Source: Promethearchaeota archaeon (GTDB lineage Archaea > Asgardarchaeota > Lokiarchaeia > Sigyniarchaeales > SOKP01). From it: a stretch of DNA of 64,000 nucleotides. Location of the stretch: positions 15,824-79,823 of the forward strand of contig JBHLME010000003.1 in assembly GCA_048938445.1 (NCBI GenBank), given 5' to 3'. Numbering within the stretch: position 1 is the stretch's first letter; every line of letters starts with the position of its first letter. Below the pieces are notes generated by a model that saw nothing but the letters and a program-made list of their open reading frames with translations, was not told the origin of the DNA and did no database searches. The position numbers and the translations under genes were made by a program. Of this stretch, positions 35,471-63,701 are shown piece after piece.

Positions 35471-36715
35471 TTAGTAAAAAGTATTAAGTCTTAAACAACA
35501 TAATAATTCTTGCTCTTCGTCCATCAATTGGATATTTTCATCAATCTTTCCATGATATTGATTGAAAACAATATAGTCTTCGAATGAATCTTCATTTTTA
35601 TTATATCTCCAACTTGGAATATAACCTCTTGGGGATAAACCTAACTCAAAGAATATTTTTTGGTGTTCAGGTTTATGGGCACTCACGAATACTTCTATAT
35701 ATCTGACTTTTAAACTCCGGGATTGTTTAATGAGTTGATTTGCAAGCACGTATAACTCGTTGATATCCGATATTTGATATTTCGTTTTTTCTATGTTTTG
35801 TACTCGTGGTGTGTGTAAAAAGGAGATGAATGAATCTGTTCCTTTAATAAAAATTTTATATTTTTCATATCCAAAATTATCTCTCGAAACTTCAATATTG
35901 AGCCGATGCATTAATTCATTTACAGTTGTAGAATCAAATTGAGGGATAGAATGATAAATCTCATACTCACCTAAATTATATCGCTCATCAGAATACTTAA
36001 ACACACCCACGACTTCTGAAATGATGCAAGGAACTTTAACAGACCTCATTTCTGTGAGCGCTATCATGTCGTAACATATTGCAAGAACATCCGACTCAGG
36101 TTTTTCAAAAAAATTATCTTTATTTGGATAGATCGCAACAGGATGAAAGCCACCATGACGCGTGACATATTGTACCTTAGCGTGGGCAGTGCGATTTTCT
36201 GAATACCATCTGAAGATTTTCCCGTCATATTTTATATAATTAGAAACATAACATCCAATACAAGCTTTTAAAATGTCAAATTCTCCTATGAATTTTTTCT
36301 TCACAATGAGACCGCGAGCATATCCCCGTTTTTCTTCAAAATCTAAAACAAACGTGAAACTCCCGCACATTTCTTTTGTCTTGGGATGTATGAATACGAA
36401 CCATTCAATATCATCCCTTTCCAACATGTCTCTTATAAATTCATGATCTTCCATTTCCTTGTAAGGATATGATCCTTCATAAACATCTCTATAGGTAAAA
36501 ATGATCTCATCAATATCATCAACATTTGCTTTTCGTATGATGGGATTAATTTTTCTTAAGGATGTTCTCTCATGAATGTTAAAATTAAATAACGTTCCAG
36601 AATCAAAATCGAAACCTTCCATTAGACTGAAAGTTTTGAGATAATCTTGGGTATATTTAGACATTATTTCAGAACGATAAAAATCCAAGTCATCATTAAA
36701 ACATAGTAAAGCCAT
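35471..36715 (-). CDS. GNAT-family N-acetyltransferase-like protein
   Basis: IRKANVDDIDEI, YEGSYPY, RGLIVKKKFIG, ENRTAH; a second GNAT-like half ends GLSPRGYIP. Confidence 0.7.
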   Translation of the reverse strand: MALLCFNDDLDFYRSEIMSKYTQDYLKTFSLMEGFDFDSGTLFNFNIHERTSLRKINPIIRKANVDDIDEIIFTYRDVYEGSYPYKEMEDHEFIRDMLERDDIEWFVFIHPKTKEMCGSFTFVLDFEEKRGYARGLIVKKKFIGEFDILKACIGCYVSNYIKYDGKIFRWYSENRTAHAKVQYVTRHGGFHPVAIYPNKDNFFEKPESDVLAICYDMIALTEMRSVKVPCIISEVVGVFKYSDERYNLGEYEIYHSIPQFDSTTVNELMHRLNIEVSRDNFGYEKYKIFIKGTDSFISFLHTPRVQNIEKTKYQISDINELYVLANQLIKQSRSLKVRYIEVFVSAHKPEHQKIFFELGLSPRGYIPSWRYNKNEDSFEDYIVFNQYHGKIDENIQLMDEEQELLCCLRLNTFY

Positions 36716-36759
36716 AAAAAATACCTTATAATATGATTACCACATATTCTTTTTAGAAC

Positions 36760-36776
36760 TATTTAAATGAAAAAAA
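36760..36776 (-). promoter_or_regulatory. T-rich-BRE TATA promoter
   Basis: Minus strand TTTTTTT-CA-TTTAAATA-GTTCT, about 45 nt before the 36715 start. Confidence 0.55.
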
Positions 36777-36862
36777 GGGTAGGTATAAAACTCAGTGAAA
36801 ATATTTGAGATATTGAAGGATTTTATTTCATATCATTTTCGTCAAATATGAGAATTTAAATA

Positions 36863-37429
36863 TTAATTTTTGATTTTATTTAAAAGCCAAACGAGATTTT
36901 TTCCTAGAATCTTTACATCTTTTTTTCCTTCAGAATCATTTTGGATTTCCCCAGAATATGCACCAATTCCTATAGCATAACCTAAAATAATCATTTCGTT
37001 TACATAAAAAAAGAAATTCACTGTGTTTAAAGACTGTATTCCACCTTGTCTCCTTTTTGCTATGATGATAGCACCAATTTTTCTTTTAAATTCAGTTTTA
37101 TTATTCAAAGAAATAAAACCCGTCCTCTCAATAAGGCATCTCATTTTTCCTGGAACATCGCCTAAATAAACTGGTGCTCCAAATATAATTGCATCTGCTT
37201 CGACCATTTTAGTATATATTTCATTAAGATCATCTTTTTGAATACATCTACCTTTATTCTTTGCACACTTATAACAAGATAAACATGTATTTATTGTTTT
37301 TCCCGCTAATTGTATTATTTCAGTTTCAATTACATTACTTTCTTCTTTTATTGAGTCAAAAACCATTTCAATTAACTGAAAAGTATTGCCCTTTGGACGG
37401 GGGCTACCATTGATTGCCAAAACTTTCAT
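36863..37429 (-). CDS. Iron-sulfur flavoprotein (Isf, flavodoxin-like)
   Basis: NGSPRPKGNT, CLSCYKC...C, ADAIIFGAPVY, RRQGG. Confidence 0.92.
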   Translation of the reverse strand: MKVLAINGSPRPKGNTFQLIEMVFDSIKEESNVIETEIIQLAGKTINTCLSCYKCAKNKGRCIQKDDLNEIYTKMVEADAIIFGAPVYLGDVPGKMRCLIERTGFISLNNKTEFKRKIGAIIIAKRRQGGIQSLNTVNFFFYVNEMIILGYAIGIGAYSGEIQNDSEGKKDVKILGKNLVWLLNKIKN

Positions 37430-37792: not shown

Positions 37793-37807
37793 TTTTTTCT
37801 TTAAATA
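37793..37807 (+). promoter_or_regulatory. T-rich-BRE TATA promoter
   Basis: TTTTTT-C-TTTAAATA about 46 nt before 37853; lies in a divergent intergenic region, so not a terminator. Confidence 0.6.
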
Positions 37808-37852: not shown

Positions 37853-39022
37853 TTGTTAGTTTTAGAAACAATAAAAGTAAATGAAGCTACAAGTATCAAG
37901 GAAATTAAAGAAGTATTAGAAGATCTACTCTATGTACCAGATGAACGAGTAAAAGTTAAAGTAATTGAGGAATATTGTATATATCTAGATTCAAAGTCTA
38001 AAAATAGTAATTATGAAATAAAATCATTCATTGCCCGAGTTAATGAGATTCCAGTTGGAATTGCAACGTGTTACATTCATCCAAGTTATACAAGTTATGG
38101 ACGAAAGTGTGGAGTAATAGGGTGGCTTTACGTAAGCAATATTGATATATGTAAAGAATTAATTGCTCGATGTGAATCATTTTTCATTAAACAGGGAATT
38201 AATAAAGTTCGAAGTGGAATAAATTTTCCGAAAAGTTTAGGGGGTATTGGGTTTCAAGTTAAAGGATTTAATGAACAAATGTTATATGGAGTGGCGTTTT
38301 CCTCACCCGAACAAAACGAGCTTAAATTTTTAATTGAATTGGGATATCAAGTCGAATGTAACTATACATGTTTACGAGTATCATCCAAAACATGGGATAA
38401 AGGAAAAAAGATAAATGGTAATATTAAGTTTAAATACGTGCCATTGAAAGAGATAATTGCAATACATGAACAGGTGCAAGAGCTTTCAAATAACTCTTTC
38501 CAAGGAATATTACCCGACACTTCAGGTGGAAGGTTTGAAGAGTTCATTTATGCTTTTAAACAAATGCCCGAAAATAAATCCACTTTAAACCATGATATCA
38601 AGCTAAAAGAGCTTTCCAATAATCCCGCTTTTTTAAACGCATGGGAATCTTGTGATCTCGAATATATCACTCCCTTAATGCCGATGGCTTTTGAAAAAAA
38701 AACAAATGAATTAATTGGGGTGTTATTAGGCCTACCAGACTTATATGAGCATTGGAATGGCAAGAAAATAACAAGAGTCAATGTTGACACGGCAATCGTG
38801 AGAAAAGACTATAAAGGAAAGGGAATATTCTCGGCTCTAAATAACATAGGACAATTAACATGTAGTTTATATGGAATGACATATTTCGAAGGCACGACCG
38901 TGTGGACGGGAAACTCTCGGGGCGTGAACAACACGGATGCAATAAATTCAATAATGCCACATTGCATTCCAATAAGAAAACATGTAGTTCTCCAAAAAAG
39001 ATTGAGGAGAAAACTTGGATAG
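37853..39022 (+). CDS. Tandem GNAT-fold protein
   Basis: FIARVNEIPVG...GVIGWL; IGVLLGLPD...VDTAIVRKDYKGKGI...EGT.VW..N. Confidence 0.72.
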   Translation: MLVLETIKVNEATSIKEIKEVLEDLLYVPDERVKVKVIEEYCIYLDSKSKNSNYEIKSFIARVNEIPVGIATCYIHPSYTSYGRKCGVIGWLYVSNIDICKELIARCESFFIKQGINKVRSGINFPKSLGGIGFQVKGFNEQMLYGVAFSSPEQNELKFLIELGYQVECNYTCLRVSSKTWDKGKKINGNIKFKYVPLKEIIAIHEQVQELSNNSFQGILPDTSGGRFEEFIYAFKQMPENKSTLNHDIKLKELSNNPAFLNAWESCDLEYITPLMPMAFEKKTNELIGVLLGLPDLYEHWNGKKITRVNVDTAIVRKDYKGKGIFSALNNIGQLTCSLYGMTYFEGTTVWTGNSRGVNNTDAINSIMPHCIPIRKHVVLQKRLRRKLG

Positions 39023-39052: not shown

Positions 39053-39068
39053 TTTTTTTATTTAAATA
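39053..39068 (+). promoter_or_regulatory. T-rich-BRE TATA promoter
   Basis: TTTTTTT-A-TTTAAATA about 60 nt before ATG 39128; could overlap a terminator. Confidence 0.45.
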
Positions 39069-39127: not shown

Positions 39128-39814
39128 ATGACAAATAATCATGATTATTCTTTTTTTGGACAAATTACTGGTTTGATTCTATCAAGCAGTTCTAGATCAC
39201 AACCTTATCTTTTCTTCAAATGCGTGAAGAAGAAAAATGATGATACCTGGGAAAAATTAAAACAGGGAGAAGGCAAGACAGTCAAGATATCGCTTGAAGA
39301 AATCGTGATGATCAAGAAAGTGCTTGAAAAAAGATCAACAGACTGGTCTACATTCCACAAACATGAAGGAATAAACACTAAAATTTCCTTTAAATGGAGT
39401 GATAACAGGGTTAACGTGAGCATAGGTGACTATTTTAAGCCATTAACTGAAGCTCAAACTGAAATTATGAAAAATCTTATAGATCATATCTATTATGAAA
39501 AAATTGAATATGCGACTATTCTTTCAGGATCAAATTATACTACGAGAAAACTTCAAGGGGTAGTTAAAACAAATGAACCATTAAACTTGAGAGTAGAAGA
39601 GGTGAAAGTAGAAAAAGAAACTCGGAATGTTAACATTAATGGTGTCGTGAACGGAGAGACTACCAAGGCACTTATGATCCACTTTAGAAGTGGAAATGAG
39701 TCGTGGATTCCAAAATCCACCATACATTCGAAATATGATACAAGTAACTTGGATGAGCAAGAGTTCTTGATTGAAGAATGGATTTTAAAAAAAAATGATA
39801 TAATTACTATATGA
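39128..39814 (+). CDS. Hypothetical two-domain protein, possibly nucleic-acid binding
   Basis: Beta-rich N-terminal domain; C-terminal ETTKALMI...SWIPKS...EEW small barrel motif; start at ATG 39128 inferred from promoter spacing. Confidence 0.65.
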   Translation: MTNNHDYSFFGQITGLILSSSSRSQPYLFFKCVKKKNDDTWEKLKQGEGKTVKISLEEIVMIKKVLEKRSTDWSTFHKHEGINTKISFKWSDNRVNVSIGDYFKPLTEAQTEIMKNLIDHIYYEKIEYATILSGSNYTTRKLQGVVKTNEPLNLRVEEVKVEKETRNVNINGVVNGETTKALMIHFRSGNESWIPKSTIHSKYDTSNLDEQEFLIEEWILKKNDIITI

Positions 39815-41081
39815 TACTTTTTTTGTAAATATCGCTAATAATGTCTAATAACTTTTTCTTGAATAAAGGAAAATTTGAAATTTTCAAATCAAACTTCTTT
39901 TCCTGGTGACTTATTTTGTTACCAAACAATACTCTTTCAATCCCTGTCATAACGTTTGATAATGATATTGATAATTCTGAAAAATTAAAGTTTATTTCTT
40001 TATTAGTTATATTACCAGAACTATTGACTTCAGTATCTTGGATGGATCTTTTCTTAATGTGTGATTTAAAAGGCAAGAGCTCATTAATTTCATTTAAAGG
40101 AATATTTAAATTCTCGAAAAGCTTTTGAAATTCATCTTTAAGTTCATCAGTCAATTTAATATCCGTGAATCTCATTGAAATCCACTCCTCTAAAAAATCC
40201 TTTGATATTCCATTCTTCCAATGATTATTCCGCAAGTAATCATAAAGCTTTTGGGGATTAAAAAGCTGTTCGAGCTCCAAATTAGCAGGATTTACTTTTC
40301 GGGATTGATAATCATGTAATGTAAGAGTGAATTCTTTTGCAACATCCCGGTTCTGGGTGATGATGAGTTCATACTCATGGGAAAAGGAGGGAAATCCACT
40401 TGAAAATGAAGAGCTACTATTTAATGTAATTAATCTACTAATATTCACTTTTGGAAGGATGATGTCAAAATATGTCTCGACAAATGCTAGAATTTTTGAC
40501 CAATATTTTTTAGGGTAATCTCTTAAAATTACTGGTAATGAGTCTAATTTTCCCACTTCGATGTAATCCTTGAATATTCGTGTCGCTGAGGCTTTAATTT
40601 TTTGAATGGTATCGAGTAGAATGTCTGGATTTTTAGACATCATGATGAGATGACGTTCAAATTCAATATCCCTATCATTAAACTCGTGGTTAAGAAAGGT
40701 CTTGGTCTTTTTATTATAAAACACGAAACGTTCAGCATTAGCCAAGGATCCCGCATTTTCCTTGACATTTAAGATGCATCGTATGCCTTCAATCTCCAAG
40801 ATTTCTTTCAGTTTTTCATTGTCGAGATTATAAACAAGAAATAAATTAGGATTTTGAGAATAAGAATTCACCGTCTCGCCTTCAATGATTTCTTTTAGGT
40901 TATAAAGAGCTGTAGATTCGATATCAACTATATTATGACCAACAGTAAAGGTCTCTAAGGCGTGCAAGTGTTTTAAATCAACATATGGAAATATGACTAG
41001 ATTCTTCTGTTGAAAGAAGAGAATGTTAAGAAATTCAGGTTTGATGAAATCTAGACCTGCATCCATCTTTAGTGCCTCCAA
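39807..41081 (-). CDS. Hypothetical protein, third gene of the mglBA-like operon
   Basis: 424-aa ORF starting 23 nt after the GTPase stop; no recognisable motif. Confidence 0.7.
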   Translation of the reverse strand: MEALKMDAGLDFIKPEFLNILFFQQKNLVIFPYVDLKHLHALETFTVGHNIVDIESTALYNLKEIIEGETVNSYSQNPNLFLVYNLDNEKLKEILEIEGIRCILNVKENAGSLANAERFVFYNKKTKTFLNHEFNDRDIEFERHLIMMSKNPDILLDTIQKIKASATRIFKDYIEVGKLDSLPVILRDYPKKYWSKILAFVETYFDIILPKVNISRLITLNSSSSFSSGFPSFSHEYELIITQNRDVAKEFTLTLHDYQSRKVNPANLELEQLFNPQKLYDYLRNNHWKNGISKDFLEEWISMRFTDIKLTDELKDEFQKLFENLNIPLNEINELLPFKSHIKKRSIQDTEVNSSGNITNKEINFNFSELSISLSNVMTGIERVLFGNKISHQEKKFDLKISNFPLFKKKLLDIISDIYKKSII

Positions 41082-41104
41082 AAAACATTTTTATAAATAA
41101 TTTA

Positions 41105-41764
41105 TTATATTTGTTCTCTGAAATACCCATAAATGACCTCGATCATCAAGTTTTCAAAACATGGAACTATATTATCACCCTTCAAGGCATTTGTTGGATA
41201 AACCACGAGCGATCCATCTGGATACTGAATATCTGAGGGAAGACCTAATTGCTTCTTGAATGTATCCATTTTAATTGCATTTTCTATGTCTCTCTTATTT
41301 AATTGAATGACAAAAGGTATTTGCTTTTTGTTAGTAAAGCTAATGAGTTCTCTAAAACTTCGCTTGTTTTGTTCTAATTTCTCTATATCAGAATCACCTA
41401 CAAAAACGATACCATCAGCACCATCTAATACGTATTCTCGTGTTGAAAGAAATCGTTCTTGTCCTGTACACGTTACGACTTGGACAATTATTTTATAATT
41501 TTGTTCTGCAAATGTGAAATCAAATGATAAAAACAGGGAATCTTGCCATAACGTCCTGCCATCCGTCGTTTCTATAGAGAATCCATTATTAATCCTTGTA
41601 AGACCAAATTTTTCTCTCAAGCGATAAAAATTCGTCGTTTTCCCCGATTCTCCAGGACCCCAATACACAATCTTGAACTGGATTAGTTGATCATTCCTTT
41701 TCTCCTTATAATCCTTGCTTGAAGCACTTTCTTCTTTTTTGATTCCATCTGATTTAAGGCTCAT
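41105..41764 (-). CDS. MglA-family small GTPase
   Basis: KIVYWGPGESGKTTN, RTLWQD (Arg finger), TCTGQ, GADGIVFVGDS, NKRD. Confidence 0.88.
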   Translation of the reverse strand: MSLKSDGIKKEESASSKDYKEKRNDQLIQFKIVYWGPGESGKTTNFYRLREKFGLTRINNGFSIETTDGRTLWQDSLFLSFDFTFAEQNYKIIVQVVTCTGQERFLSTREYVLDGADGIVFVGDSDIEKLEQNKRSFRELISFTNKKQIPFVIQLNKRDIENAIKMDTFKKQLGLPSDIQYPDGSLVVYPTNALKGDNIVPCFENLMIEVIYGYFREQI

Positions 41765-41785
41765 AATTACATCTCCCTCATGTTC

Positions 41786-42334
41786 TTAAGATATGGATCC
41801 TATCTTATCACTAAATATCTCTTTTTTCATCTTTTTAATATGTTCCTTGAGTTCTCGCTCGGTCATTTTCAGTGTATTTTTGATAGAACCATTTTTTTCG
41901 ATTAAATTCTTAATTTTTTGAGCAAATCGTCCCATTTGTAAATTAATAACACCAATATTTACTTCTTTATCAGACAAGAGAACAATTAGTATCTCTCTCT
42001 TGCCCTTTCTACTGAGTGAAACCGTTCCTATTGATTTCACATATAGCATCATGTTATTATAAATGATTGTGGCTCGCTCTAATGCTTCTGCCTCAAAAAA
42101 GTCTTGACCTTGCCGTGCCACGCCATAAAGTGCAGCACCTATGGAGCTCAAATCCCAGTAATTCAACTTTTTGTCAAACCGAGAATCAACGGCTATTAGT
42201 TTTGCGTCTTGATCGATGGCAATGAGACCGTAAATGTAACCTCTCCTGGTAAGTTTTCCATATTGCATTTTGATGTCATCTAACACACCTGTAATCTCAT
42301 TTTTATACAATATTTTTGGTATACTATTTATCAT
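41786..42334 (-). CDS. MglB-like roadblock/LC7 protein
   Basis: LIAIDQDAKLIA...LSSIGAALYG...ILIVLLSDKEVNIGVI; directly upstream of the MglA-like gene. Confidence 0.75.
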   Translation of the reverse strand: MINSIPKILYKNEITGVLDDIKMQYGKLTRRGYIYGLIAIDQDAKLIAVDSRFDKKLNYWDLSSIGAALYGVARQGQDFFEAEALERATIIYNNMMLYVKSIGTVSLSRKGKREILIVLLSDKEVNIGVINLQMGRFAQKIKNLIEKNGSIKNTLKMTERELKEHIKKMKKEIFSDKIGSIS

Positions 42335-42385: not shown

Positions 42386-42401
42386 TATTTAAAGAAAAAA
42401 A
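42386..42401 (-). promoter_or_regulatory. T-rich-BRE TATA promoter
   Basis: Minus strand TTTTTTT-C-TTTAAATA-GTTCT; the 13-mer AGAACTATTTAAA is identical to 36755-36767. Confidence 0.6.
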
Positions 42402-42463: not shown

Positions 42464-43441
42464 TTATAGTTTTTTTAATATAGATTTTTTAGTAAGATGA
42501 ACCTGTTTAGTTCTCGTGTATGAATTTTCTTTGATAATTACATTAGATAACATTATTTCATCACCATCAATCATCTGCTTTAAACAATTAACAGCATCCA
42601 TACCCCACGCAATTACTTGAATGCTATCACTGTCATCACTCAAGTAAAACCTCAATAAAAAAGTTTTTTCACCATTTTTCGAAATTTTTTCTAAAAATTC
42701 TTCAATATGAACGATACCAGAGATATTTGTTATAAAACCATCCTTTTCAAGCGCCACAGAAATTTTAATAGGATTTAAATCTAAAATTGAAGATTTCATA
42801 TATTCTCTAAATAATTTAGGAATTTTTTTATTCACATCTTCTTCAAGAGGTGCTAAAATGATTTTTCCTTTCTTGCCTAAATGGACTTCCAATTGATCCT
42901 TAATCCCCATCTTAGAATATCCCCCAATGATTCTCACAATCTCATTAAACATAAAATAATCATTCTTCATCACGTCAACTTGAGAGTCCCAAAGCACGAT
43001 CTTGATGCTTCCAGAACCATCATTAATGGTAAAAGACCCTACAATTCCTTTGGTACCATCTTTCCTTGTAAATTCTCTAATTGGATAAATTCTTTCAATC
43101 CTCCCAATGATTACGATACTGCTCATTCCATCTTCAACTAGGGAGATATCGATTGTAAAATCATCATAGTCAAAATCCTCTTCCATAAAATCAATGTCTT
43201 CTAGATTATTATTAGTACCCCTAATGTTCACACCCATTTCCTTAGCTATGACAAAAAGAATGGCTTCATTCGACATGAAGCCACCTAAAATTTGGGCTTT
43301 TTTATTAATCTGATGCTCAATTTCTGACTCGGTCATTCCAGCATTAATAAGTGCTTGATATAAATCATCAACATCCGGAATCATTGAAAAACAACTAATT
43401 TTGATTAATTCCGAGAATATTTCTCGTTCTATGAAAAGCAT
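42464..43441 (-). CDS. Replication protein A / SSB (two OB folds)
   Basis: GGFMSNEAILFVIAKEMGV N-domain; REFTRKDGTKG.V, DGSGSIKIVLWD, SDDSDSIQVIAW; the real start may be MIPDVD. Confidence 0.9.
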   Translation of the reverse strand: MLFIEREIFSELIKISCFSMIPDVDDLYQALINAGMTESEIEHQINKKAQILGGFMSNEAILFVIAKEMGVNIRGTNNNLEDIDFMEEDFDYDDFTIDISLVEDGMSSIVIIGRIERIYPIREFTRKDGTKGIVGSFTINDGSGSIKIVLWDSQVDVMKNDYFMFNEIVRIIGGYSKMGIKDQLEVHLGKKGKIILAPLEEDVNKKIPKLFREYMKSSILDLNPIKISVALEKDGFITNISGIVHIEEFLEKISKNGEKTFLLRFYLSDDSDSIQVIAWGMDAVNCLKQMIDGDEIMLSNVIIKENSYTRTKQVHLTKKSILKKL

Positions 43442-55668: not shown

Positions 55669-55725
55669 AGAGGAGATACCCCCATATATTTCTTAACAAT
55701 AATGAAAAAAATAAGTTGAAAAAAA

Positions 55726-56973
55726 ATGGCAATATTTGGATCTGAAATTGCTAGAGTTTCTTACCCTGAAAATATGACTTGTGATGCATGTCATTCAAAA
55801 AACATAAAGGATCACGAACTCGGACAGGTGTGTGGAGATTGTGGAATTGTCCTTGAAAGAGTCAAATTGGAATATCATAGACCTTATAATGAAGAGGTGC
55901 TCCAACACGCAGTCTTGGGAGGTACGACCATGGGTACAATGAAAGAACGACTTCATTCGTCACGATCTCTCTACCTTAACAAATTAAATAAGTTACATTC
56001 GATTCAGGATTCTGAAGATGCCGTTAATACCAAGGCAAGGAAAGAAATCAAGCGAATTTTCGAACATCTTCAATTACCTAAATCTAAAATAGAATTAGCG
56101 TTTTTAAAGTTCAAAGATTTTCGTTCAAGCCTCCTTCCAGGAACCAAATACAGGAGTCCTGAGAAATTAGTTCCAATCACGATATATTTCTGTATGAAAC
56201 TTAATAACATTTCAATTAGCGAGTCTGAATTGTTAGAAGTTTCGCAGATTAGGAAGAAAGAATTTAATGCTTTCAAACTTCAAATAACGAGGTTCATGCC
56301 AGAGTATGCCGAAAGAAATAGAAAAGATTATATCCTTCAAAAAATCATGGAAATTAGAGAGCACTTTTCCTTAGATATGGTATTTTATTATAGAGCAAAA
56401 GCAATTTTATATAAGTTATGGAATACCATTAATTGCACCAAAGATGAAGTTATTGCGGGATTAGCATGTTCCATAACGACTTTGTGTTGCTATCAAGAGA
56501 GGGAAGATATCTCTGTCAATAGTATATGCTCTAAGCTTGGTATCATGATGAGCACCATACAATCACAAGTGAAGAGGAAAATTATTGATAGATATAAGAT
56601 TCCAAATTTTATCAGCCTCGTGAAATCATCTGATATTCTCAAAAAGATCCTCATTGCATTGAAAATAATTGAAGAAGATTTACCTGTGAATGAAAATGAG
56701 AATGTTGACACATGCAAAATAATTGAAAATGATTTCATAGAAATCAAGTTAATGAGAAAAGGTTTGGGCGCATTTTCTCATGATGAAAATGACAAATATT
56801 ATCATTTTGCATTGAAAGATGTAAATGATAATCCAATTTTCATCGAGATTAAGACAAAAGCAAGACGTAAATTAGATGCTTTAAGTGAAAAAAAGTATTC
56901 TCGGAATTCAAATGGCTCTATATTTGAATTTGGAAGGTATAGATATTTCCGAGTTAAAGGACCACCTGTATAG
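55726..56973 (+). CDS. Divergent TFB/TFIIB-family protein
   Basis: Zn ribbon CDAC...VCGDCGIVLE; two cyclin repeats (ARKEIKRIFEHLQLP...ITIYFCMK; VIAGLACSI...ISVNSICSKLGIMMSTI); ~110-aa C-terminal extension. Confidence 0.85.
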   Translation: MAIFGSEIARVSYPENMTCDACHSKNIKDHELGQVCGDCGIVLERVKLEYHRPYNEEVLQHAVLGGTTMGTMKERLHSSRSLYLNKLNKLHSIQDSEDAVNTKARKEIKRIFEHLQLPKSKIELAFLKFKDFRSSLLPGTKYRSPEKLVPITIYFCMKLNNISISESELLEVSQIRKKEFNAFKLQITRFMPEYAERNRKDYILQKIMEIREHFSLDMVFYYRAKAILYKLWNTINCTKDEVIAGLACSITTLCCYQEREDISVNSICSKLGIMMSTIQSQVKRKIIDRYKIPNFISLVKSSDILKKILIALKIIEEDLPVNENENVDTCKIIENDFIEIKLMRKGLGAFSHDENDKYYHFALKDVNDNPIFIEIKTKARRKLDALSEKKYSRNSNGSIFEFGRYRYFRVKGPPV

Positions 56974-57386
56974 AGCTATTATAATTCCTTTTTATATTTA
57001 AACTTAAATTAATGTATTATTTTTTATTTTTATCTTAATTAATTTGATTGGTTAGTCCTAAGCTATAATTTTATTGCATTTGTTATTGGCTCTTTTTATC
57101 GATTTTTAGCTTTTTTACTCATGTTCTTGACTTTCTGTCCCTTCCTTCCTTTCATTTTTTTTTCATCTCGAGCTAAAAGACCAAATACACCTGCAACTAT
57201 GATTTTATTCTTTTTTTCTCTTTTCATAAATTCAACTTTTCTGGATTTTTTGATATTGAGTTGAAGTTAATATGAGGATCTATATAAATCAATCTGGTTA
57301 ATAATTGAAATTTATGCATTTTTAACTCAAATTTATATTTTTTTTTTATATACTTCCATAAAAGACAATGTATAGAGCACATCTAG

Positions 57387-60320
57387 GTGCAAAAAATGAA
57401 ATTAAAAAAAATAAGTTGTATATTTGGATTAATTAGTTTATTTTGTTTAACGATGTTGTCTGGGATTTTTAATATAGAAAATCTTTCAGAATATTCATAT
57501 GTAAGTGAATATCAAAATGAAATCTTGACTCCTTCCATATCAGTTGGGACTAATGAAGATATTATTGACGAGATTTTGGATGCTAAAATAGGTTTCTTTC
57601 AAGCGGAGCAATTCTTTCCCGGATTGTATGAAACATCCATACATGCAACCTATTATGCGATCTATACAATCTTTACTCTTGGAAAGAGTAATATGTTAAA
57701 CGAAAATACCATCATCGACTTCATTATGGCGCATTACAATAATTCCACTGCACTTTTTGAAGATAGTTATTCGGATCGATATCTAGATACAGACTTTAAC
57801 CAGTGGTATTTTCCTCTCACCACGTTGCTCGAGGTAAATTGCTATGCGTTCCTCACGCTTGACTTGTTAGATGCCATGGACCGGATAGACACGCAAGATG
57901 CCATCGATTTCATCTGGAGCTGCTATAATCCCGTCACCTCGGGATTCATTGGTCAACCTTATGATGCAAGCTTGGAAGAAAAATTCAAAGTATCGACATT
58001 GGATAATACATATCACGCTATATATACCTTGGATTTGCTCATGGATGATTGGACGGTTTACAGTCAGGAAGAGGATGAACTTGTAGCATTTATAAACAGC
58101 TTACAAAATCTGGATGGAAGCATTGATAATGATTTGGATAATCTATTTGATTCCTTACAAATCTGGGAACCAAATCCAATATCCGCGTGGTATGCCGTGA
58201 AAGTACTCGAGTTGTTCAATCAAGTGGACACGATCAACCTTGCAAACCTTAGAACCTATCTCGAAGAACTTTATGATATAGGAAGGGGCTGCTTTAAATT
58301 GTCCACGATATCTGGATATGAACAGCATTCTGACGTGATATCAAGTGCTTTGTGCATGGAAATTTCGGACATCGTGCTCTTTGCCAATTATGACAGGGCA
58401 GCAACGATTCAATTCATCCAGAATAATCGAAATTCTCTGGGAAATTGGAATGAAGGGACGTTGTATGATTATCATGAACTCCTTTATACTTACTTTATCA
58501 TTCGAGCCTTTGATAATACTGGTTCTTTACCAAATCTTAGTCCTGTTGAGGTTGATGAAATTGCAAGCTCCACGAGTTATTATTATGATGGAATTGGTGG
58601 ATATGCAATTCTTTCTAAGGACTACACGCCCATAAAGTCGTTGTATTCGGTGATAAATTCTCTCATGATTGAAGATAAATATGATGACTTGAACTTGTCG
58701 GAAAAGGAGGCGCTTTTTACCTCAATAATCAGCGGATACCAAGAATCTCCTTTTGGCAAATCCGCATTTTTCTACAACATTAAAGCGTACAATCAATTCA
58801 TAGGATTCATGACCTCTCCCTTGGATTGTTTCAGTGCGGGTTCGAAAGAACGGCTTAAAGTAATCGAATACGGAACCACCCATAAAAACACGTATCTTAC
58901 CCTGGAGATGCTTGATCGAATGTTCAAGCTCGATGATTTAGATACTATGCACGATTTAACGAGATTCATTGATAATGTCATTGCTTCCCATTTTATGGAA
59001 ATTGGTTACGATGAGACCGGGGGCTTTTACATCAACGATGGCATTCAAGCCCAACCTGCTAGTCTCCGAGTAAATTTCATCTATTTTGAACATTCATATT
59101 ATGCAATAAAAATCCTTGAATTACTGACTGAATTCTTGGGTATTGGAGATGTACATGATGTTGGAATCGACCACGATGCATTTATCGCTTACATATACCG
59201 AAATATCCAACAATTCGGCGACATTTTATGGTTTCAACCAAAATACACGGATGACGTCGACATCATCTTGAAAAATATTTATTTTGCCATTGATGCACTA
59301 CAAATCTTAGATGCTTTTAATTTAGACGTCCAGAAAATCTATAATTTCATCTACCAAAACATCGATTATACCAACATTAGAAATGTCTATTATTGCCACA
59401 AGATTATTAACGCCTTGAGCTTGGATAACTTTATTAATTATGATATGGTAAAAACATTAATATCTTTGCTTTACGATGAATCGACACACGAATTGTACCT
59501 CACGACTAAAAGGAACAATATCTGTCAAGAGGCACTCTGGTGGGTGTGTGAAATGGCGAATTCAGGTATCATAAAAGCTGAACTTTCAGTAACTGATCCT
59601 GTTCCACTTGGTACGTCAGTAAATGTCTCAGTGACCTTAAAAAACTTGATATACAACGTTTCAACGCAATATTATCTTGTAAATTTTGAAAGTAATCAAT
59701 TGGGAACATTTCAATTACAAGATCATAGCTCATGTTATTGGGATGAGATTTTCATTCCCATTTATCCAAGTAATTATCCATGGATAATAGGAAACATTAG
59801 CATCTATAAAAGCGGTCTCAAACAGCTTGAAGTGCCCTTGGTAATAAATACAACCTACGAGACGTACGAAGAGTTCGATATTAAGAAGCTTGCTGATGGA
59901 AGCATTGTGTTTGATGGATTATCTCAACTCATCATCAATGATGATACCTTTCCTGCGGGATTATATGGATTTCGAGTAAGAGTTGATGTTTACTTTAACG
60001 ATGGATTTACCGAATCACTCTATATGGAGTCTTCTGACACCCAATTTAGCGACCGTACAGAGTATTACTTGAAATACACTCCTCAATCCTATGGTAAATA
60101 TTACTTTGAGATGTATTACGAAAATCCCATTGAACAAAATGCAATAATGATCAATTCTGAATCACTTTCTTACTCGGGAAGTTCAGGAGTTTTCCAAGGA
60201 CCGGACAACGCCCTGACTGGAGCGATCATCATTGGAGTAGCACTTGCCCTCTCCTCAACGGGTGTCATGGTGTTCTCCACTAAGAAACGAGGTGTACTCC
60301 ATAGAAAATTTAATAGATAA
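57387..60320 (+). CDS. Secreted prenyltransferase/squalene-oxidase-repeat (alpha/alpha toroid) protein with C-terminal TM anchor
   Basis: Signal peptide; repeated TYYAI..L..L...ID..I...N..GGF units; beta-rich stalk; TM + KKR. Confidence 0.8.
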   Translation: MQKMKLKKISCIFGLISLFCLTMLSGIFNIENLSEYSYVSEYQNEILTPSISVGTNEDIIDEILDAKIGFFQAEQFFPGLYETSIHATYYAIYTIFTLGKSNMLNENTIIDFIMAHYNNSTALFEDSYSDRYLDTDFNQWYFPLTTLLEVNCYAFLTLDLLDAMDRIDTQDAIDFIWSCYNPVTSGFIGQPYDASLEEKFKVSTLDNTYHAIYTLDLLMDDWTVYSQEEDELVAFINSLQNLDGSIDNDLDNLFDSLQIWEPNPISAWYAVKVLELFNQVDTINLANLRTYLEELYDIGRGCFKLSTISGYEQHSDVISSALCMEISDIVLFANYDRAATIQFIQNNRNSLGNWNEGTLYDYHELLYTYFIIRAFDNTGSLPNLSPVEVDEIASSTSYYYDGIGGYAILSKDYTPIKSLYSVINSLMIEDKYDDLNLSEKEALFTSIISGYQESPFGKSAFFYNIKAYNQFIGFMTSPLDCFSAGSKERLKVIEYGTTHKNTYLTLEMLDRMFKLDDLDTMHDLTRFIDNVIASHFMEIGYDETGGFYINDGIQAQPASLRVNFIYFEHSYYAIKILELLTEFLGIGDVHDVGIDHDAFIAYIYRNIQQFGDILWFQPKYTDDVDIILKNIYFAIDALQILDAFNLDVQKIYNFIYQNIDYTNIRNVYYCHKIINALSLDNFINYDMVKTLISLLYDESTHELYLTTKRNNICQEALWWVCEMANSGIIKAELSVTDPVPLGTSVNVSVTLKNLIYNVSTQYYLVNFESNQLGTFQLQDHSSCYWDEIFIPIYPSNYPWIIGNISIYKSGLKQLEVPLVINTTYETYEEFDIKKLADGSIVFDGLSQLIINDDTFPAGLYGFRVRVDVYFNDGFTESLYMESSDTQFSDRTEYYLKYTPQSYGKYYFEMYYENPIEQNAIMINSESLSYSGSSGVFQGPDNALTGAIIIGVALALSSTGVMVFSTKKRGVLHRKFNR

Positions 60321-60336
60321 TTTAGTTTTTTCTCAA

Positions 60337-60352
60337 TTTTTTCCTTTTATAA
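60337..60352 (+). promoter_or_regulatory. T-rich-BRE TATA promoter of the hef operon
   Basis: TTTTTT-CC-TTTTATAA 25 nt before ATG 60377 (leaderless spacing); could overlap a terminator. Confidence 0.5.
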
Positions 60353-60376
60353 TTTCATCATTTGGATATAATTAGT

Positions 60377-60955
60377 ATGTCAGATTCAGATCTTGATAAA
60401 AGATCATATGAAATTTTGGGTCATATTTTAATTGCACTGAAATCCTTTGAAGGGAAATATGATAAAAAATTAAATTTTAGCAAGCTTGCACGATATTTTC
60501 GATTAAATGAACGAGATGCAGATTATCTGGCAGAATTCATAGTCAAATTCCAAGAAGAATTTAAAGATTTTAGCAAAATATTTTGTAAGTATAAATTAAA
60601 TAAAAAATACGAGAATGGTAAAATCTACGTTACTGCTGAAATTAAAGATGATGTTGTTCCCAAAACAATTCATTTGGAACAAGAGCATGCAAATTGGTTG
60701 AGTGATTTAATTTATTCATTTCAACATGTCAAAAAGGGTAAGGGATTTGATCTATCAAATAAAAACGTTGACATTGTGAGAAAAATCCGACTTTTGATGA
60801 AGTCTCATCCGTATCTTTTTTATAAGAATGGAGGCGATCTCGTGTATCCTTCACGATTAGGATCTGAATTGGGAAATGCAATCCTTTCCTGTAAGAAATT
60901 GAACAAGCAATTTGTAAATAGGAAAATTAATGAATGTGAGATTCGAATTGATTAA
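60377..60955 (+). CDS. Hypothetical protein (possible HTH), first gene of the hef operon
   Basis: LNFSKLARYFRLN helix pattern; 2 nt from the hef start; the track start is TTG 60362. Confidence 0.65.
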   Translation: MSDSDLDKRSYEILGHILIALKSFEGKYDKKLNFSKLARYFRLNERDADYLAEFIVKFQEEFKDFSKIFCKYKLNKKYENGKIYVTAEIKDDVVPKTIHLEQEHANWLSDLIYSFQHVKKGKGFDLSNKNVDIVRKIRLLMKSHPYLFYKNGGDLVYPSRLGSELGNAILSCKKLNKQFVNRKINECEIRID

Positions 60956-60957
60956 TT

Positions 60958-63169
60958 ATGGTTGAGATAAGAGGAACTAAGCCAGAGGAAAAAAACTCAT
61001 ATTTAGAAAAAAAAGAGGTTGAATATCGACATTATCAAGAAATAATTGCCCAAAAATGCGTCGGAAAAAATTCATTAGTAGTAATTCCGACCGGGCTTGG
61101 AAAAACTATCATTGGAGTCCTTGTCGCGGCAAAATTATTAGAAATGGTTCCTTCAGACAGCAAGATTATTATCTTGGCTCCAACCCGACCGCTTATCGAA
61201 CAACATTTCCAATCATTCCTTCAGAAATTATCGATTCCAAAAGAGAAGTTCGCAATCCTCACAGGAAAGATTGCACCGAGCAAAAGAACAGAGATATTTG
61301 AAACAAATCAAGTGTTATTTTTTACGCCTCATACCCTTAGAAATGACCTCGTGAACAAGAAATATGATTTAAGCCACACTTGCTTGGTGATCTTTGATGA
61401 AGCCCATCATGCGTCAGGTGATTATCCTTATCCCTTGATTGCTGATAAATACAAACAACAAAACTCTGATGGAACTATCTTAGCACTCACGGCATCTCCT
61501 GGTGCTTCAAAAAAAAATCATTGATCTGTGCAATACACTTTATATCCCACCTCAAAACATTCACATACGTTCCCGAAAGGATGAAGACGTGAAGATATAC
61601 TTGAAACCAATGGACATTTACAAGATTGGTGTTGACATGTCGGATTTAATGGAGGAAGCATATTTATCAATAACTCAAGTATTAGAAGATAAGTTGCTCT
61701 ATTTAGCTCACTTGAGTTTTTTATCTCAAGATATAAAACCATTATATAAGCACGTGATAAGGAAAGACCTGGTAAAACTTAACTTGGAATTACTGGAAAT
61801 AATCAAGGGGGATGGTGATAAGACTGGAGTGTATAGCGGAATTTCCGTCAATGCCCAAGCTCTTAAATTACATCATATGCTCGAATTAATCGAACAGCAA
61901 GGACTTGAGATGTTAATGGAATACATGAAAAAAATGCGAAAAGATTCCCGGAAGAAAAGTAGTTCAAAAGCAATAAAAATTTTAGCTAATAATCCACAAT
62001 TACGAAGAGTTTATATAGAGCTAAAAAAAAATGAAGAATTTTCACCTAAGGAACTCATCCATCCCAAGCTTCCCGTGTTAAAAAAATGCTTAATAGAAGA
62101 ATTAAATAAAAATAAGCAAGCTAAAATACTCGTATTCGTCAAGTTGAGAAATTCAGTGAAAAATATCGTGAATAAATTGGATAAGATTGATTTAATAAGA
62201 CCAGTAAGGTTTGTAGGACAAACAACGAAATCAAAAGAAGATAAAGGACTTTCTCAAAAGCGACAAGTAGAGATATTAGAATTATTTAAGGAAGGTAAGT
62301 ATAACGTGTTAGTAGCAACCAACGTGGCAGAAGAAGGTCTGGATATTGCAGAGTGTGATCTAGTCATTTTTTATGATGTAGTTGCATCAGAGATCAGGTT
62401 AATACAAAGAAAAGGAAGGACTGCACGGCATAGGAAGGGGAAAGTATTGATACTTTATACCAAAAACACCCGGGATGATATATATATGAAAATTGCTTTA
62501 AAAAAATTAAAAAAAATGAACGTAAACCTCAAGAACAAACAGCAACTTCACGGTTATTATGCTAGAGAGCAGATAAAGAAGGATGTGCTATTAAATCAAG
62601 AATCCCTAAATAACCATACACAAGCGAGAAATAATGACGGATTACCTCAAAATAATGAAGTTAAATTTGAGATTGTCCGTCCGAAAATGATTATTCCTAA
62701 AAATAAAAAATTTAACTTGGATTATTTTGCTGAAAAGGCTCTCGAAGAGAAAGAAAAACAATTTAAGGAAAAAAGTCCGGGAATTATAATAAGCAAGGAC
62801 TTACCATTGAAATACGGACTTCGTCATGAATTAAAGACACGTTCAATTCCTTTTATTGCGATATCCTCTGAAGTACACGTGGTTATTAATGACAAGATAC
62901 TCGTGCAAGTTTATAAAACTACACCTCAAAATTTTCTAATGAAGAAATATCTTTCTCTTTATGAGAGATATAGAAGGAAATATGAACTCGTGATCTTTGT
63001 ATTCGAACTGCTGGACTTCCAGGAATCATTTGGTGGTGAAAAACGACTATTCAAGAGAAAAGTCCAAGAACTTACTATGGGAAATGATCTTCAAGTAGTT
63101 CCTATTGATGATCATTCTGAACTTTTTTTTCTCGTGAGATCTCTATATGAACAGAAAAACTCTCGGTGA
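60958..63169 (+). CDS. hef: Hef/FANCM-family SF2 helicase split by a frameshift in an A9 run (61509-61517)
   Basis: ORF1: YRHYQ, PTGLGKT, APTRPL, FDEAHH, LTASPG. ORF2: HPKL, RFVGQ, VAEEGLDI, QRKGRTAR. The two frames join at the homopolymer. Confidence 0.9.
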
Positions 63170-63179
63170 ATGACTTAAA

Positions 63180-63701
63180 ATGGAAGAAAAAAGTTTTAAA
63201 AAGGTTGAAAAATCCTATTACATCTTTGCCTGTTCCACGTGTAATAATTATTCATATGTAAAGACTACGCAAAAAGGAAAGAAATGCTTACGTTGTGGAA
63301 GACACCATCAAGTAGAAAAGCTTAAAGCCATATCAGAAGTTGTTTCAGGTATTAGTACTGCGAAAGATAGGATTATAGAATTAGAAAATCTTATGGCGCG
63401 AAAAGAGCTTGGTTCTGAACCTGAATTACGATCTGAAAATGATTTCTATATTTATTATCAAGATTTACAGAAGAGTTCAAGTTCAAATAAAATTGAACAT
63501 AATGGAAGCGACTTCCTCAAATTTAAACTACTACTTAATACCTTAAGAGATAAATACAAGAAATTTCCGCTATACTTGATTGAAATTTCAGCAATAGATC
63601 ACCAAATTCCCCAAGAAAAATTGAAATTTTTAATAGAAAAATCTATTAAAAATGGAATCATAAAAAGGACCGCAGAAGGATTGTATTTTATGGTTTCTTA
63701 A
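63180..63701 (+). CDS. DUF1922-like Zn-ribbon protein
   Basis: IFACSTC...QKGKKCLRCGR; C-terminal wHTH-like helices. Confidence 0.72.
   Translation: MEEKSFKKVEKSYYIFACSTCNNYSYVKTTQKGKKCLRCGRHHQVEKLKAISEVVSGISTAKDRIIELENLMARKELGSEPELRSENDFYIYYQDLQKSSSSNKIEHNGSDFLKFKLLLNTLRDKYKKFPLYLIEISAIDHQIPQEKLKFLIEKSIKNGIIKRTAEGLYFMVS

Follow-up and report, generated by a model that had tools for sequence, protein, structure and literature searches.

The question raised by this locus is whether an archaeal gene cluster could be placed under a transcription initiation factor of its own, encoded among the genes that it would serve. We lean modestly to the answer that an island-encoded alternative TFB reads the T5-8-C-TATA promoters of its regulon. 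In Promethearchaeota archaeon (GCA_048938445.1, contig JBHLME010000003.1) the gene block lies at 35.4-63.7 kb of the window (the whole 64-kb stretch of DNA that was analysed) and was divided by eye into 17 transcription units. A preliminary description had presented it as a block of about 28 kb with a divergent TFB and recombination, GTPase, Zn-ribbon, membrane and GNAT genes, and the gene calls bear this out:

35471-36715, - strand: tandem-GNAT-fold protein, 414 aa (Atlas TM 0.77)
36863-37429: unrelated FMN-reductase gene between the two GNAT-like genes, without the motif described below
37853-39022, + strand: GNAT-like protein, 389 aa (GNAT 18 bits only, below cut-off)
39807-42334, - strand: operon of a Roadblock/MglB-fold protein (41786-42334, -; 1j3w_C, E 1.4e-4, TMt 0.63), an Arf-family small GTPase (41105-41764, -) and a 424-aa protein (39807-41081, -)
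42464-43985, - strand: unit encoding a protein of 196 aa and, at 42464-43441 (-), an RPA-like OB-fold protein of 325 aa (replication-factor-A-like, every score below cut-off)
44907-45224, + strand: Zn-ribbon protein, 105 aa, resembling the topoisomerase I Zn ribbon
45256-46230, + strand: membrane (TM) protein, 324 aa
50203-51432, - strand: RadA paralog (NCBIfam PRK04301, 332 bits, cut-off 259) that carries an additional HhH domain at its C-terminus
53541-55358, - strand: operon encoding a 253-aa multi-TM HELGH protein (54597-55358, -; M50B 16.9 bits only), a TM protein, 111 aa (54268-54603, -), and a P-loop ATPase, 244 aa (53541-54275, -; weakly RadB-like, 32.9 bits, cut-off 172)
55726-56973, + strand: divergent TFB paralog of full length, 415 aa (Pfam TFIIB repeat scoring 25.7 bits, cut-off 23.6)
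57387-60320, + strand: membrane-anchored protein, 977 aa, prenyltransferase-type alpha-alpha toroid
60362-63701, + strand: operon of a 197-aa protein, a Hef-type helicase paralog (60958-63169, +; aligned to positions 7-526 of the 781 in the Hef model) and a DUF5817 Zn-ribbon protein

The RadA and divergent TFB assignments of the preliminary description held, while its RPA, RadB-like, second GNAT and membrane-protease assignments are weak or below cut-off. The Hef match ends at model position 526 of 781, so the nuclease part is unmatched, and the Hef-type reading frame is broken into two ORFs by an A9 run (61509-61517). The island also carries a Hel308-type helicase, HhH and Zn-ribbon proteins, the GTPase/Roadblock pair and large membrane proteins. 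Because the cargo includes RadA, Hef-type and Hel308-type helicases, RPA- and RadB-like proteins and membrane proteins, it points to a putative programme of DNA recombination or DNA exchange that also involves the cell surface. Housekeeping copies of radA, rpa and tfb, a point raised at the outset, are present elsewhere in the genome, as are those of hef (Hef-like genes on C136 and C116); the island RadA shares 41% identity with the genome's two other RadA genes (C26, C113).

Judged by sequence comparison, the block is a conserved accessory gene island belonging to one Lokiarchaeia family (Promethearchaeota). Most genomes of that family have it in the same gene order, and outside the island the flanking genes are not common to the relatives. 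The Zn-ribbon protein/TM protein pair (44907-46230) is syntenic in relatives, where the 977-aa gene adjoins the TFB-like gene by synteny and Zn-ribbon proteins are kept in the islands; the GNAT-like pair remains adjacent and motif-bearing in G018, G007 and G028. The expected co-occurrence with this TFB clade was also found: of 36 family genomes, 24 have both the TFB-like gene and the 53541 ATPase, 8 have neither and 4 are discordant (32/36 concordant), counts that overstate the support because the relatives are not independent by kinship.

An island that is patchy within one genus (1/4 genomes of g6) and whose surroundings differ among relatives could be a mobile element or provirus, or a derivative of one, that has its own TFB, with the motif as its promoter type, and wyrdviruses and related contigs are described as encoding a TFB (preprint 10.1101/2021.07.29.453957). 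We consider this origin very improbable. The IMG/VR scan for relatives gave 89 pattern matches and 0 confirmed, none of the 17 island proteins matched a PHROG family assigned to structure or replication, and the defence-system search returned nothing beyond generic helicase and ATPase matches. The window has no tRNA gene and no integrase among the ORFs scanned, and the island with its constant gene order is found in most family genomes. The question here is one of origin, and a mobile ancestry is compatible with the alternative-TFB mechanism.

Most units share a non-canonical promoter, as was initially noticed. The core-promoter consensus is a TATA box (TTTAWATA or TTTTATAA) with T5-8-C directly 5' of it; the form T5-8-C(C/A)-TATA is carried by 7/17 units and a T-tract and TATA variant without the C by a further 3/17:

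36760-36776, - strand: T7-CA-TTTAAATA, promoter of the tandem-GNAT gene (orthologs 4/7 loose)
37793-37807, + strand: T6-C-TTTAAATA, promoter of the GNAT-like gene 37853-39022 (orthologs 3/4)
42386-42401, - strand: T7-C-TTTAAATA, promoter of the Roadblock/GTPase operon (orthologs 4/4 strict, 49-52 nt before the start)
44843-44858, + strand: T6-CC-TTTAAATA, promoter of the Zn-ribbon/TM protein pair (orthologs 8/9, TATA end 46-51 nt before the start)
51514-51529, - strand: T6-C-TTTTATAAA, promoter of the RadA paralog (orthologs 8/8 strict)
55368-55384, - strand: T8-C-TTTATATA, promoter of the HELGH/ATPase operon (orthologs 11/11 loose, 8/11 strict; TATA end 22 nt before the start in 7/11)
60337-60352, + strand: T6-CC-TTTTATAA, promoter of the Hef-type helicase operon (orthologs 9/10 loose; TATA end 22-26 nt before the start in 7/9)
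57338-57352, + strand: T10-ATATA variant without C, upstream of the 977-aa gene (orthologs 5/7 loose, 4/7 strict, with the C-containing form)
44063-44077: T6-A-TTTATAAA variant, upstream of 42464-43985 (orthologs 1/3 by regex; two orthologs have T6-A or T5-C forms)
39053-39068: T-tract and TATA variant without C

The remaining 7/17 units have neither form. One of them is the tfb-like gene; the genes of the other six lack counterparts in the islands of relatives, except for one match for 46346-46567.

In 30 loci from relatives the motif was detected in sense, within 130 nt, before 53/63 unit-leading orthologs (strict 41/63), against 6/63 in antisense before the same genes and 5/76 before a control set made up of the TFB-like gene and of genes internal to operons. 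The motif persists at non-homologous genes in no fewer than eight genera, and we regard it as very probably a genuine cis-element common to the units of a conserved regulon. The strict form, TTTTTTC[N]?TTTAAATA, is found at 12 places in the 4.6-Mb genome with its approximately 2,700 upstream regions, 4 of them in one 8.1-kb part of the block; when the 11 intergenic matches were placed at random 20,000 times, at least 4 fell inside 8.2 kb in 0 cases. The looser pattern is mostly background (43 sense versus 58 antisense promoter-like positions genome-wide); the strict form alone is informative. Exact 15-mers lie at most 25 kb from the TFB-like gene in 29/71 cases in five genomes of five genera (G000 3/11, G028 8/16, G007 6/14, G018 and G015 6/15 each), these distances being a comparison of coordinates from two separate searches. 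In relatives, motif clusters away from the locus lie in front of island-gene orthologs, which belong to the GNAT pair, GTPase operon and C196 operon.

The motif might alternatively be a strong or ancestral ordinary promoter for canonical TFBs, clustered by common descent of adjacent promoters or by demand for high expression. The genome is AT-rich, the loose motif is common and unoriented, and the general promoter of the organism yielded no definable consensus. Exact-15-mer sums, added by hand with the reversed pattern as control, reach 271 versus 132 in the 27 TFB-like-positive family genomes and 41 versus 59 in the 24 non-family genomes, the latter at background; several TFB-like-positive genomes do not exceed the control (G008 9 versus 13, G016 5 versus 6, G027 7 versus 8). 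The genome-wide counts are noisy. An ordinary promoter is nevertheless an improbable explanation, given the rarity of the strict form among the upstream regions, its conservation between genera at non-homologous genes, its absence before the tfb-like gene and before those units of the block that do not belong to the island, and tRNA upstream regions that have no such T-tract.

Three genomes of 97-99% completeness without the island (G009, G010, G021) have no island RadA or Hef paralogs, only distant RadA copies, and their motif counts (2, 6 and 4 versus controls of 2, 2 and 3) are background. Two sister-family genomes, each closed in a single contig, gave no convincing TFB-like match, and their motif counts are again at background. 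The motif is enriched in G033 (15 versus 3) and G036 (10 versus 4), where no TFB-like gene was found; the island is present there and broken at contig ends, so this absence is probably an assembly gap. The C185-type second divergent TFB, present in 57/61 genomes class-wide, occurs also in the motif-unenriched ones and thus does not track the motif.

The geometry is that of a core promoter, since the T-tract abuts the TATA box with 0-1 nt of play in the PWM and the TATA-to-start distances are fixed: 22-26 nt from the TATA end in two operon families, a spacing that would fit leaderless mRNAs, and 46-52 nt in two others. In archaea the site directly 5' of TATA is normally a purine-rich BRE that TFB reads. 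By the PWM, the T-tract sits exactly at this position, where the second cyclin/HTH domain of TFB reads the major groove and sets the direction of transcription, as described in PMC4581349.

The TFB-like protein has a Zn ribbon (C19, C22, C36 and C39 invariant in the alignment), a conserved linker, both cyclin repeats and, at the C-terminus, an additional beta-rich domain of approximately 75 aa. Its AF2 model (pLDDT 71.7) matches the P. woesei TFB core 1d3u_B (TMt 0.79, rmsd 3.4, 208 columns) and 1ais_B (Z 16.1, rmsd 3.3, 187 residues), and hhalign against the 15 canonical TFBs of the genome gave prob 97.6 and E 2.7e-12. The recognition helix, whose residues we take from TFB/TFIIB-DNA crystal structures to be the contacts to BRE bases, reads T-[LIVM]-R-x-R in 14/15 of these canonical TFBs and T-[IV]-[QH]-x-Q in 36/36 aligned TFB-like family members. 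This supports a predicted alteration of the BRE-reading helix, with Gln or His for the canonical Arg. The tfb-like gene is on a different promoter, as the preliminary description had stated:

55660-55683, + strand: TATA with purine flanks (AAGATTTAAAAAG), then a C-rich, ACTCC-like box

This form is kept upstream of 14/21 orthologs by script and about 17/21 by eye. The T-tract motif was found upstream of 0/20 TFB-like genes, so autoregulation is not indicated.

A separate DNA-binding regulator, island-encoded or from elsewhere, might instead use T-tract-C as its operator, with the divergent TFB acting, e.g., as co-activator or generic initiation factor. The precedent is the ANTTTC element of Sulfolobales DNA-damage promoters, which PMC6061795 describes as bound by Orc1-2 with TFB3 downstream. 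Candidates exist in the 197-aa protein heading the Hef-type operon, which has weak winged-helix leads (all under the bar of the tool), and in the conserved Zn-ribbon proteins as possible DNA binders. We judge a separate regulator rather unlikely. With the tract abutting TATA at the BRE position, a second protein bound there must share the surface with TFB; the TFB-like recognition helix was specifically changed and then kept in all members aligned; no Orc1/Cdc6 gene was seen in the window; and the T6C PWM shows T where ANTTTC needs A.

Our data support the island as a dedicated and co-inherited set, with one core-promoter type in common and the tfb-like gene under another. Because one T-rich promoter precedes nearly all of the recombination, GTPase and membrane genes, they suggest a sigma-factor-like switch for a DNA-recombination programme. 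We infer that this TFB is the reader of the T-tract and that the island behaves as a switch: the paralog would bind TBP and RNA polymerase as any TFB, the T-tract would be read by the altered recognition helix (TIQxQ for TLRxR), and production of the paralog would lead to transcription of the entire island, like a bacterial alternative sigma factor. Upstream control would likely act at the C-rich box just 3' of the TATA in the tfb-like promoter. The dedicated inducible programme under a TFB with changed BRE specificity, as first proposed, is thus partly supported, by the gene set, the promoter and the altered helix, with inducibility and a role in damage response or DNA exchange as its putative parts.

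In the literature we found no report in print of such a TFB-linked regulon. The Asgard wyrdviruses (10.1101/2021.07.29.453957) resemble it in having a non-housekeeping TFB homolog in Asgard-associated DNA; the island differs by its conserved chromosomal synteny and has no viral hallmark genes, and IMG/VR yielded no relative of this family. The likeness to ECF-type sigma factors lies in an initiation-factor paralog with changed promoter-reading residues, located beside its own regulon with a different promoter, and TFB CLR/HTH2 and sigma region 4 have been proposed as homologs reading an upstream anchor element (PMC4581349). Unlike them, the island belongs to the archaeal TBP/TFB system, has no identified anti-factor and gives no indication of autoregulation.

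The Sulfolobales DNA-damage regulon likewise ties a TFB paralog to DNA-repair, exchange and surface genes with a T-rich, C-ended element near TATA, a shared promoter element that PMC6061795 describes as read by the separate activator Orc1-2 and not by a TFB. That system includes Ups pili and Ced DNA import, whereas no ups or ced orthologs were found among the island genes. TFB3 is a truncated co-activator, in contrast to the full-length island TFB; the island element is fused to TATA, and the island genes are clustered around their own factor. In haloarchaea with multiple TFBs, full-length paralogs direct sub-regulons. TFB2 of S. acidocaldarius is similarly described as a full-length paralog that directs a sub-regulon, a cell-cycle wave, whose TATA boxes and BREs resemble the TFB1 ones and are spaced differently (preprint 10.64898/2026.09.06.749720). 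Compared with TFB2, the island has a pyrimidine tract at the BRE position, a recognition helix that has lost both Arg and a regulon physically clustered with its factor.

The island, the gene block at 35.4-63.7 kb of the window, comprises 17 transcription units around a divergent TFB paralog (TFB-like gene and protein below), gene starts and transcription units being inferred by a simple ORF caller. The assembly of the genome under study (G000) amounts to 4.6 Mb in 256 contigs (96.5% complete, 8.2% contamination), the window is ~30% G+C, and relatives of the window proteins in the protein collection carry the source labels Promethearchaeota or Lokiarchaeota. Searches with Pfam and NCBIfam, together with an Atlas look-up and two predicted structures, mostly confirmed the genes listed in the preliminary description, as follows (window positions):

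35471-36715, GNAT-like protein (tandem-GNAT fold, TM 0.77)
37853-39022, GNAT-like protein (weak)
41105-41764, Arf-family small GTPase (Arf family, 47.4 bits)
41786-42334, Roadblock/MglB-fold protein (1j3w_C, E 1.4e-4, TMt 0.63; model pLDDT 68.8)
42464-43441, RPA-like OB protein (scores below cut-offs)
44907-45224, Zn-ribbon protein
50203-51432, RadA paralog with an extra C-terminal HhH (NCBIfam PRK04301, Pfam Rad51)
53541-54275, P-loop ATPase, weakly RadB-like (TIGR02237)
54597-55358, multi-TM HELGH protein (previously described as a membrane HEXXH protease)
55726-56973, plus strand, divergent TFB, 415 aa (Pfam TFIIB repeat and fold)
60958-63169, Hef-type helicase in two ORFs (Hef model, helicase part)
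63180-63701, Zn-ribbon protein (DUF5817)

The RadA paralog exceeds the family cut-off (NCBIfam PRK04301, 332 versus 259 bits; Pfam Rad51, 235.6 bits) and has an HHH_5 domain added at residues 351-403. The protein described as RadB-like is a RecA-like P-loop ATPase that misses the RadB cut-off (TIGR02237, 32.9 versus 172.4 bits). The Hef/FANCM assignment is confined to the helicase part, which matches the Hef model over positions 7-526 of 781 only, with scores of 215 and 310 bits, below the 610 cut-off; the last ~170 residues had no family match. An A9 homopolymer (61509-61517) shifts the frame between the helicase halves (60958-61524 and 61502-63169), both parts of which share one frame in the relatives, and the split may reflect a mistake in the assembly or a genuine frameshift. 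The suggested MglAB pair was recovered as a predicted Ras-superfamily GTPase adjoining a protein of modelled Roadblock/LC7 fold, with a putative GAP role. The check for housekeeping radA, hef, rpa and tfb copies was positive, all being present elsewhere in the genome.

A non-canonical promoter had been proposed for most units of the block. In the 150 nt upstream of each ORF, we detected it in full for seven of the 17 units, as a T5-8-C(C/A) tract abutting TTTAAATA, TTTATATA or TTTTATAA, and for three further units as a T-tract and TATA variant without the C. The other seven units lack this island motif, namely the TFB-like gene and six units without counterpart in the islands of relatives (FMN reductase, NT5C nucleotidase, a 73-aa ORF, two SBBP propeller paralogs and a 508-aa protein), whose genes, searched in the relatives' loci, gave none except one match for the 73-aa ORF. 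The SBBP pair were the sole paralogs in the all-against-all BLASTP of the block's proteins; since the proteins of the motif-bearing units are not mutual paralogs, gene duplication cannot account for the common promoter sequence and was rejected as its source. The two SBBP beta-propeller genes (47039-48391 and 48667-50058) have at least seven further family copies in the genome, lie in a region of high G+C and strong GC skew and share a near-identical ~38-nt upstream box (at 46940-47038 and 48570-48666; TATA, then GACCTTG) that is unlike the island motif.

The pattern TTTTTTC[N]?TTTAAATA has 12 matches on both strands of the genome, four of which lie at 36.7-44.9 kb of the window, all in sense orientation and 42-53 nt upstream of a start codon. 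Random placement (11 intergenic matches over 734,623 intergenic bases) gave at least four matches within 8.2 kb in 0 of 20,000 trials. Looser patterns, with 43 sense and 58 antisense promoter-like positions genome-wide, are uninformative because the DNA is AT-rich and background dominates, and strict forms were used instead. The general promoter of the genome gave no BRE signal when anchored on TATA-like octamers or start codons, the sole signal being a G-rich patch (-14 to -8) that resembles a Shine-Dalgarno sequence; tRNA upstream regions, few and heterogeneous, yielded no general promoter either, so that "canonical" is not definable from the data of this genome. A dense two-strand array of ~25 tRNA genes (ARAGORN) is located at ~6.4-15 kb of contig C215, with few tRNAs elsewhere in the genome.

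Some island genes have a diverged second copy (44-77% identity) on one of two short contigs, C39 (3.6 kb) and C49 (3.4 kb); these are the genes for the RadA paralog, a Zn ribbon, the 324-aa protein, the Roadblock protein, the GTPase and the RPA-like protein, and the island motif is present on C49. The contigs may belong to a relative binned together with this genome (8.2% contamination) or to a true second island.

Relatives of the TFB-like protein were detected in 26 of the 36 genomes examined from the Lokiarchaeia family to which G000 belongs; in the sister family, 2 of 14 genomes gave weak ones, and the closed genomes, with no convincing TFB-like match and background motif counts, lack the island. 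The protein collection holds 190 relatives at E <= 1e-5, mostly unnamed. Comparison of 20 regions spanning TFB-like genes (at most 20 kb each) and 10 further loci supported the expected synteny, with island gene order kept across several genera: Zn ribbon and 324-aa protein, RadA paralog and ATPase/TM protein/HELGH protein, followed by the divergently transcribed TFB-like gene, a 977-aa protein and 197-aa protein/helicase/DUF5817 protein. The GNAT pair, the GTPase operon and the RPA-like pair are found beside this conserved core or within tens of kb of it, and in relatives with a rearranged order, such as G028, the island genes still share one region. Window genes left of 35471 had no counterpart in the relatives' loci compared. 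Positions 1-35000 hold eukaryote-like genes of the kind usual in Asgard archaea and with no relation to the island, including three Ras/Arf-family GTPases, a RagA/Gtr1-like GTPase, a gelsolin-repeat protein and a PAC2 proteasome-assembly homolog.

The island may be of mobile or viral origin, TFB being encoded by Asgard wyrdviruses, but no IMG/VR relative of the TFB-like family was found, the libraries searched revealed no capsid, terminase, integrase or other hallmark, no att site was found and the window has no tRNA. We regard a viral or defence origin as unlikely, IMG/VR, PHROGs and PADLOC having given nothing specific.

The island motif is conserved in the relatives at the same genes. Counting tblastn matches that start within the first 39 query residues and have 130 nt upstream in the locus (others were dropped), the motif precedes unit-leading orthologs in sense orientation in 53 of 63 cases in loose form and 41/63 in strict form, versus 6/63 and 4/63 antisense and 5/76 and 2/76 for the control set of internal operon genes and the TFB-like gene. 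The start codon follows the TATA end by 22 nt in 7 of the 11 HELGH operons and by 22-26 nt in 7 of the 9 helicase operons, consistent with leaderless mRNAs for both as predicted from sequence, and by 46-51 nt in Zn-ribbon and 49-52 nt in Roadblock genes. In the window, the annotated ATG of 54597-55358 lies 9 nt past the TATA end; translation probably begins at the second Met (residue 6), on a putatively leaderless mRNA, because the relatives keep the 22-nt spacing. The claim that the TFB-like gene itself uses a different promoter held, with the island motif upstream of 0/20 TFB-like genes; their own conserved upstream sequence is a purine-flanked TTTAAAA(A)G with an ACTCC-like C-rich box a few bases on. 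The box is located at 55660-55700, just 3' of the TATA of the TFB-like gene, and is found in G000 and most relatives.

We counted the exact 15-mer TTTTTTCTTTAWATA genome-wide, with the same pattern read backwards as the control.

Exact 15-mer and control matches in the genome under study (G000) and four relatives
Genome, TTTTTTCTTTAWATA, control
G000, 11, 6
G028, 16, 5
G007, 14, 3
G018, 15, 5
G015, 15, 5

In these five genomes, 29 of the 71 exact 15-mers lie within 25 kb of a TFB-like gene, and the off-locus motif clusters of the relatives sit upstream of orthologs of other motif-bearing G000 genes, with the GNAT pair, the GTPase operon and an operon on contig C196 (686-aa HhH protein and 1,289-aa protein, adjoining a Hel308-like helicase) as targets. 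Three near-complete family genomes (G009, G010 and G021) yielded no TFB-like gene and no orthologs of the ATPase, the GNAT-like 35471 protein, the island RadA or the helicase, keeping only distant housekeeping RadA and helicase copies (38-43% identity); their motif and control counts were 2 versus 2, 6 versus 2 and 4 versus 3. Among the 61 genomes, with sums made by hand, the 27 TFB-like-positive family genomes have 271 motif and 132 control matches, and the 24 other-family genomes 41 and 59. Alternatively, the motif may simply represent a strong promoter of general use, a reading that we disfavour since the motif is rare and drops to background counts in genomes without the island.

The signal is noisy per genome, the motif count not exceeding the control in G008, G016 and G027. 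Two genomes are motif-enriched with no TFB-like gene found (G033, 15 versus 3; G036, 10 versus 4). The island is present in both, cut at contig ends: in G033 the RadA ortholog lies at C26:1-819 and pieces of the helicase on C224, and G036 has RadA, ATPase and helicase orthologs. We read the missing genes as probable assembly gaps. The anticipated co-occurrence was observed: of the 36 family genomes, 24 have the TFB-like gene together with the island ATPase, 8 have neither and 4 have only one of the two, counts that describe a pattern and do not test it, as kin are not independent. A second divergent TFB type does not track the island motif, being present in 57 of 61 genomes of the class. Its gene in G000 (333 aa) lies in the locus C185:1-12400 among genes for two small GTPases, a MarR-like HTH protein, a 45256-46230 paralog and a T2SSE-type ATPase, with several T-tract motif copies nearby. 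TBP is encoded by three full genes in G000, none of them linked to a motif site among the sites examined.

The TFB-like protein has the TFB/TFIIB architecture of a Zn ribbon and two cyclin-like repeats. The N-terminal CxxC...CxxC ribbon (C19, C22, C36 and C39, invariant in 36/36 sequences) is modelled with two short strands and scores 16.8 bits with Pfam Zn_Ribbon_TF (cut-off 29); the 50-residue linker from ribbon to core is strongly conserved in the 36-sequence alignment and of low confidence in the model. The Pfam TFIIB repeat recognized the first repeat only (25.7 versus 23.6 bits), as did the family profile searched against PDB sequences (E 3e-4), and fold searches were needed in addition. 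The AF2 model (pLDDT 71.7) fits the TFB core of P. woesei (1d3u_B, TMt 0.79, rmsd 3.4, 208 columns; 1ais_B, Z 16.1, rmsd 3.3, 187 residues), and profile-profile alignment to the 15 canonical two-repeat TFBs of G000 gave prob 97.6, E 2.7e-12 and 262 columns. The C-terminal extension (~340-415), which lay outside all fold-search matches, is predicted to form a small beta-rich domain and ends in KGPP. TFB3-type co-activators are truncated, without the B-reader/linker and the second cyclin repeat, and this candidate was excluded, the protein being full length with both repeats.

From TFB/TFIIB-DNA crystal structures, Arg residues of the recognition helix are expected to contact BRE bases. The repeat-2 recognition helix reads T-[LIVM]-R-x-R in 14 of the 15 canonical TFBs of G000 and T-[IV]-[QH]-x-Q in 36/36 members of the TFB-like family, none of which fits the canonical pattern; the BRE-reading helix is altered throughout the family, in line with the changed BRE specificity suggested earlier. 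PMC4581349 describes how the second cyclin/HTH domain inserts into the major groove directly 5' of the TATA, sets transcription direction and reads the BRE with the start of its third helix.

The simplest and most likely mechanism is that the island TFB would act as an alternative initiation factor, because the motif stands at the BRE position with fixed spacing and is strand-asymmetric beside near-palindromic TATA boxes, and because it travels with a TFB whose reading helix changed and was then frozen. TBP would bind the TATA box, the island TFB would bind the T-tract and recruit polymerase, and the island would be expressed when the TFB-like protein is made; the C-rich box just 3' of the TATA of its gene is a plausible candidate operator for an upstream signal. 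By analogy, a separate regulator may read the T-tract element, as Orc1-2 does on ANTTTC in Sulfolobales (PMC6061795). The Orc1-2 damage regulon itself was rejected, as the PWM position five bases ahead of the C is T (0.99), where ANTTTC would require A, and the window ORFs scanned included no Orc1/Cdc6 family member.

The cargo suggests that the programme may serve recombination or the exchange of DNA and include a part at the cell surface. Its members are a duplicated RadA, helicases of Hef and Hel308 type, proteins resembling RPA and RadB, proteins with HhH or Zn-ribbon domains, the GTPase/Roadblock pair, GNAT-like proteins and large membrane proteins. We consider it rather unlikely, though worth stating, that the Arg-to-Gln BRE head reads the pyrimidine tract and drives a facultative, mating-like DNA-exchange programme with recombination paralogs apart from the housekeeping ones; its private set would consist of the RadA, Hef-type, Hel308-type and RPA paralogs, the GTPase/Roadblock module and surface proteins.

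If true, the system would provide a clean, testable model for how TFIIB-family factors gain promoter selectivity, and in the Asgard setting the diversification of a TFIIB-like factor bears on eukaryotic origins. About 30 genes, many of unknown function, would be marked as one programme around duplicated recombination proteins, and DNA exchange in Asgard archaea would become approachable by experiment. To our knowledge, no case of TFB promoter specificity readable from sequence has been described, and we found no description of this island/TFB system in the literature searched.

TFB paralogs partition transcription in some archaea, and systems of this type have precedents in TFB2, TFB3 and the TFBs of haloarchaea, all paralogs with sub-regulons. 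The BREs of TFB2 are similar to those of TFB1 according to its authors (preprint 10.64898/2026.09.06.749720). Compared with these paralogs, the island has a sharply distinct element where the BRE would lie and a reading helix changed to match it, its factor is full length, the regulon is clustered around the factor, and the hosts are Asgard archaea.
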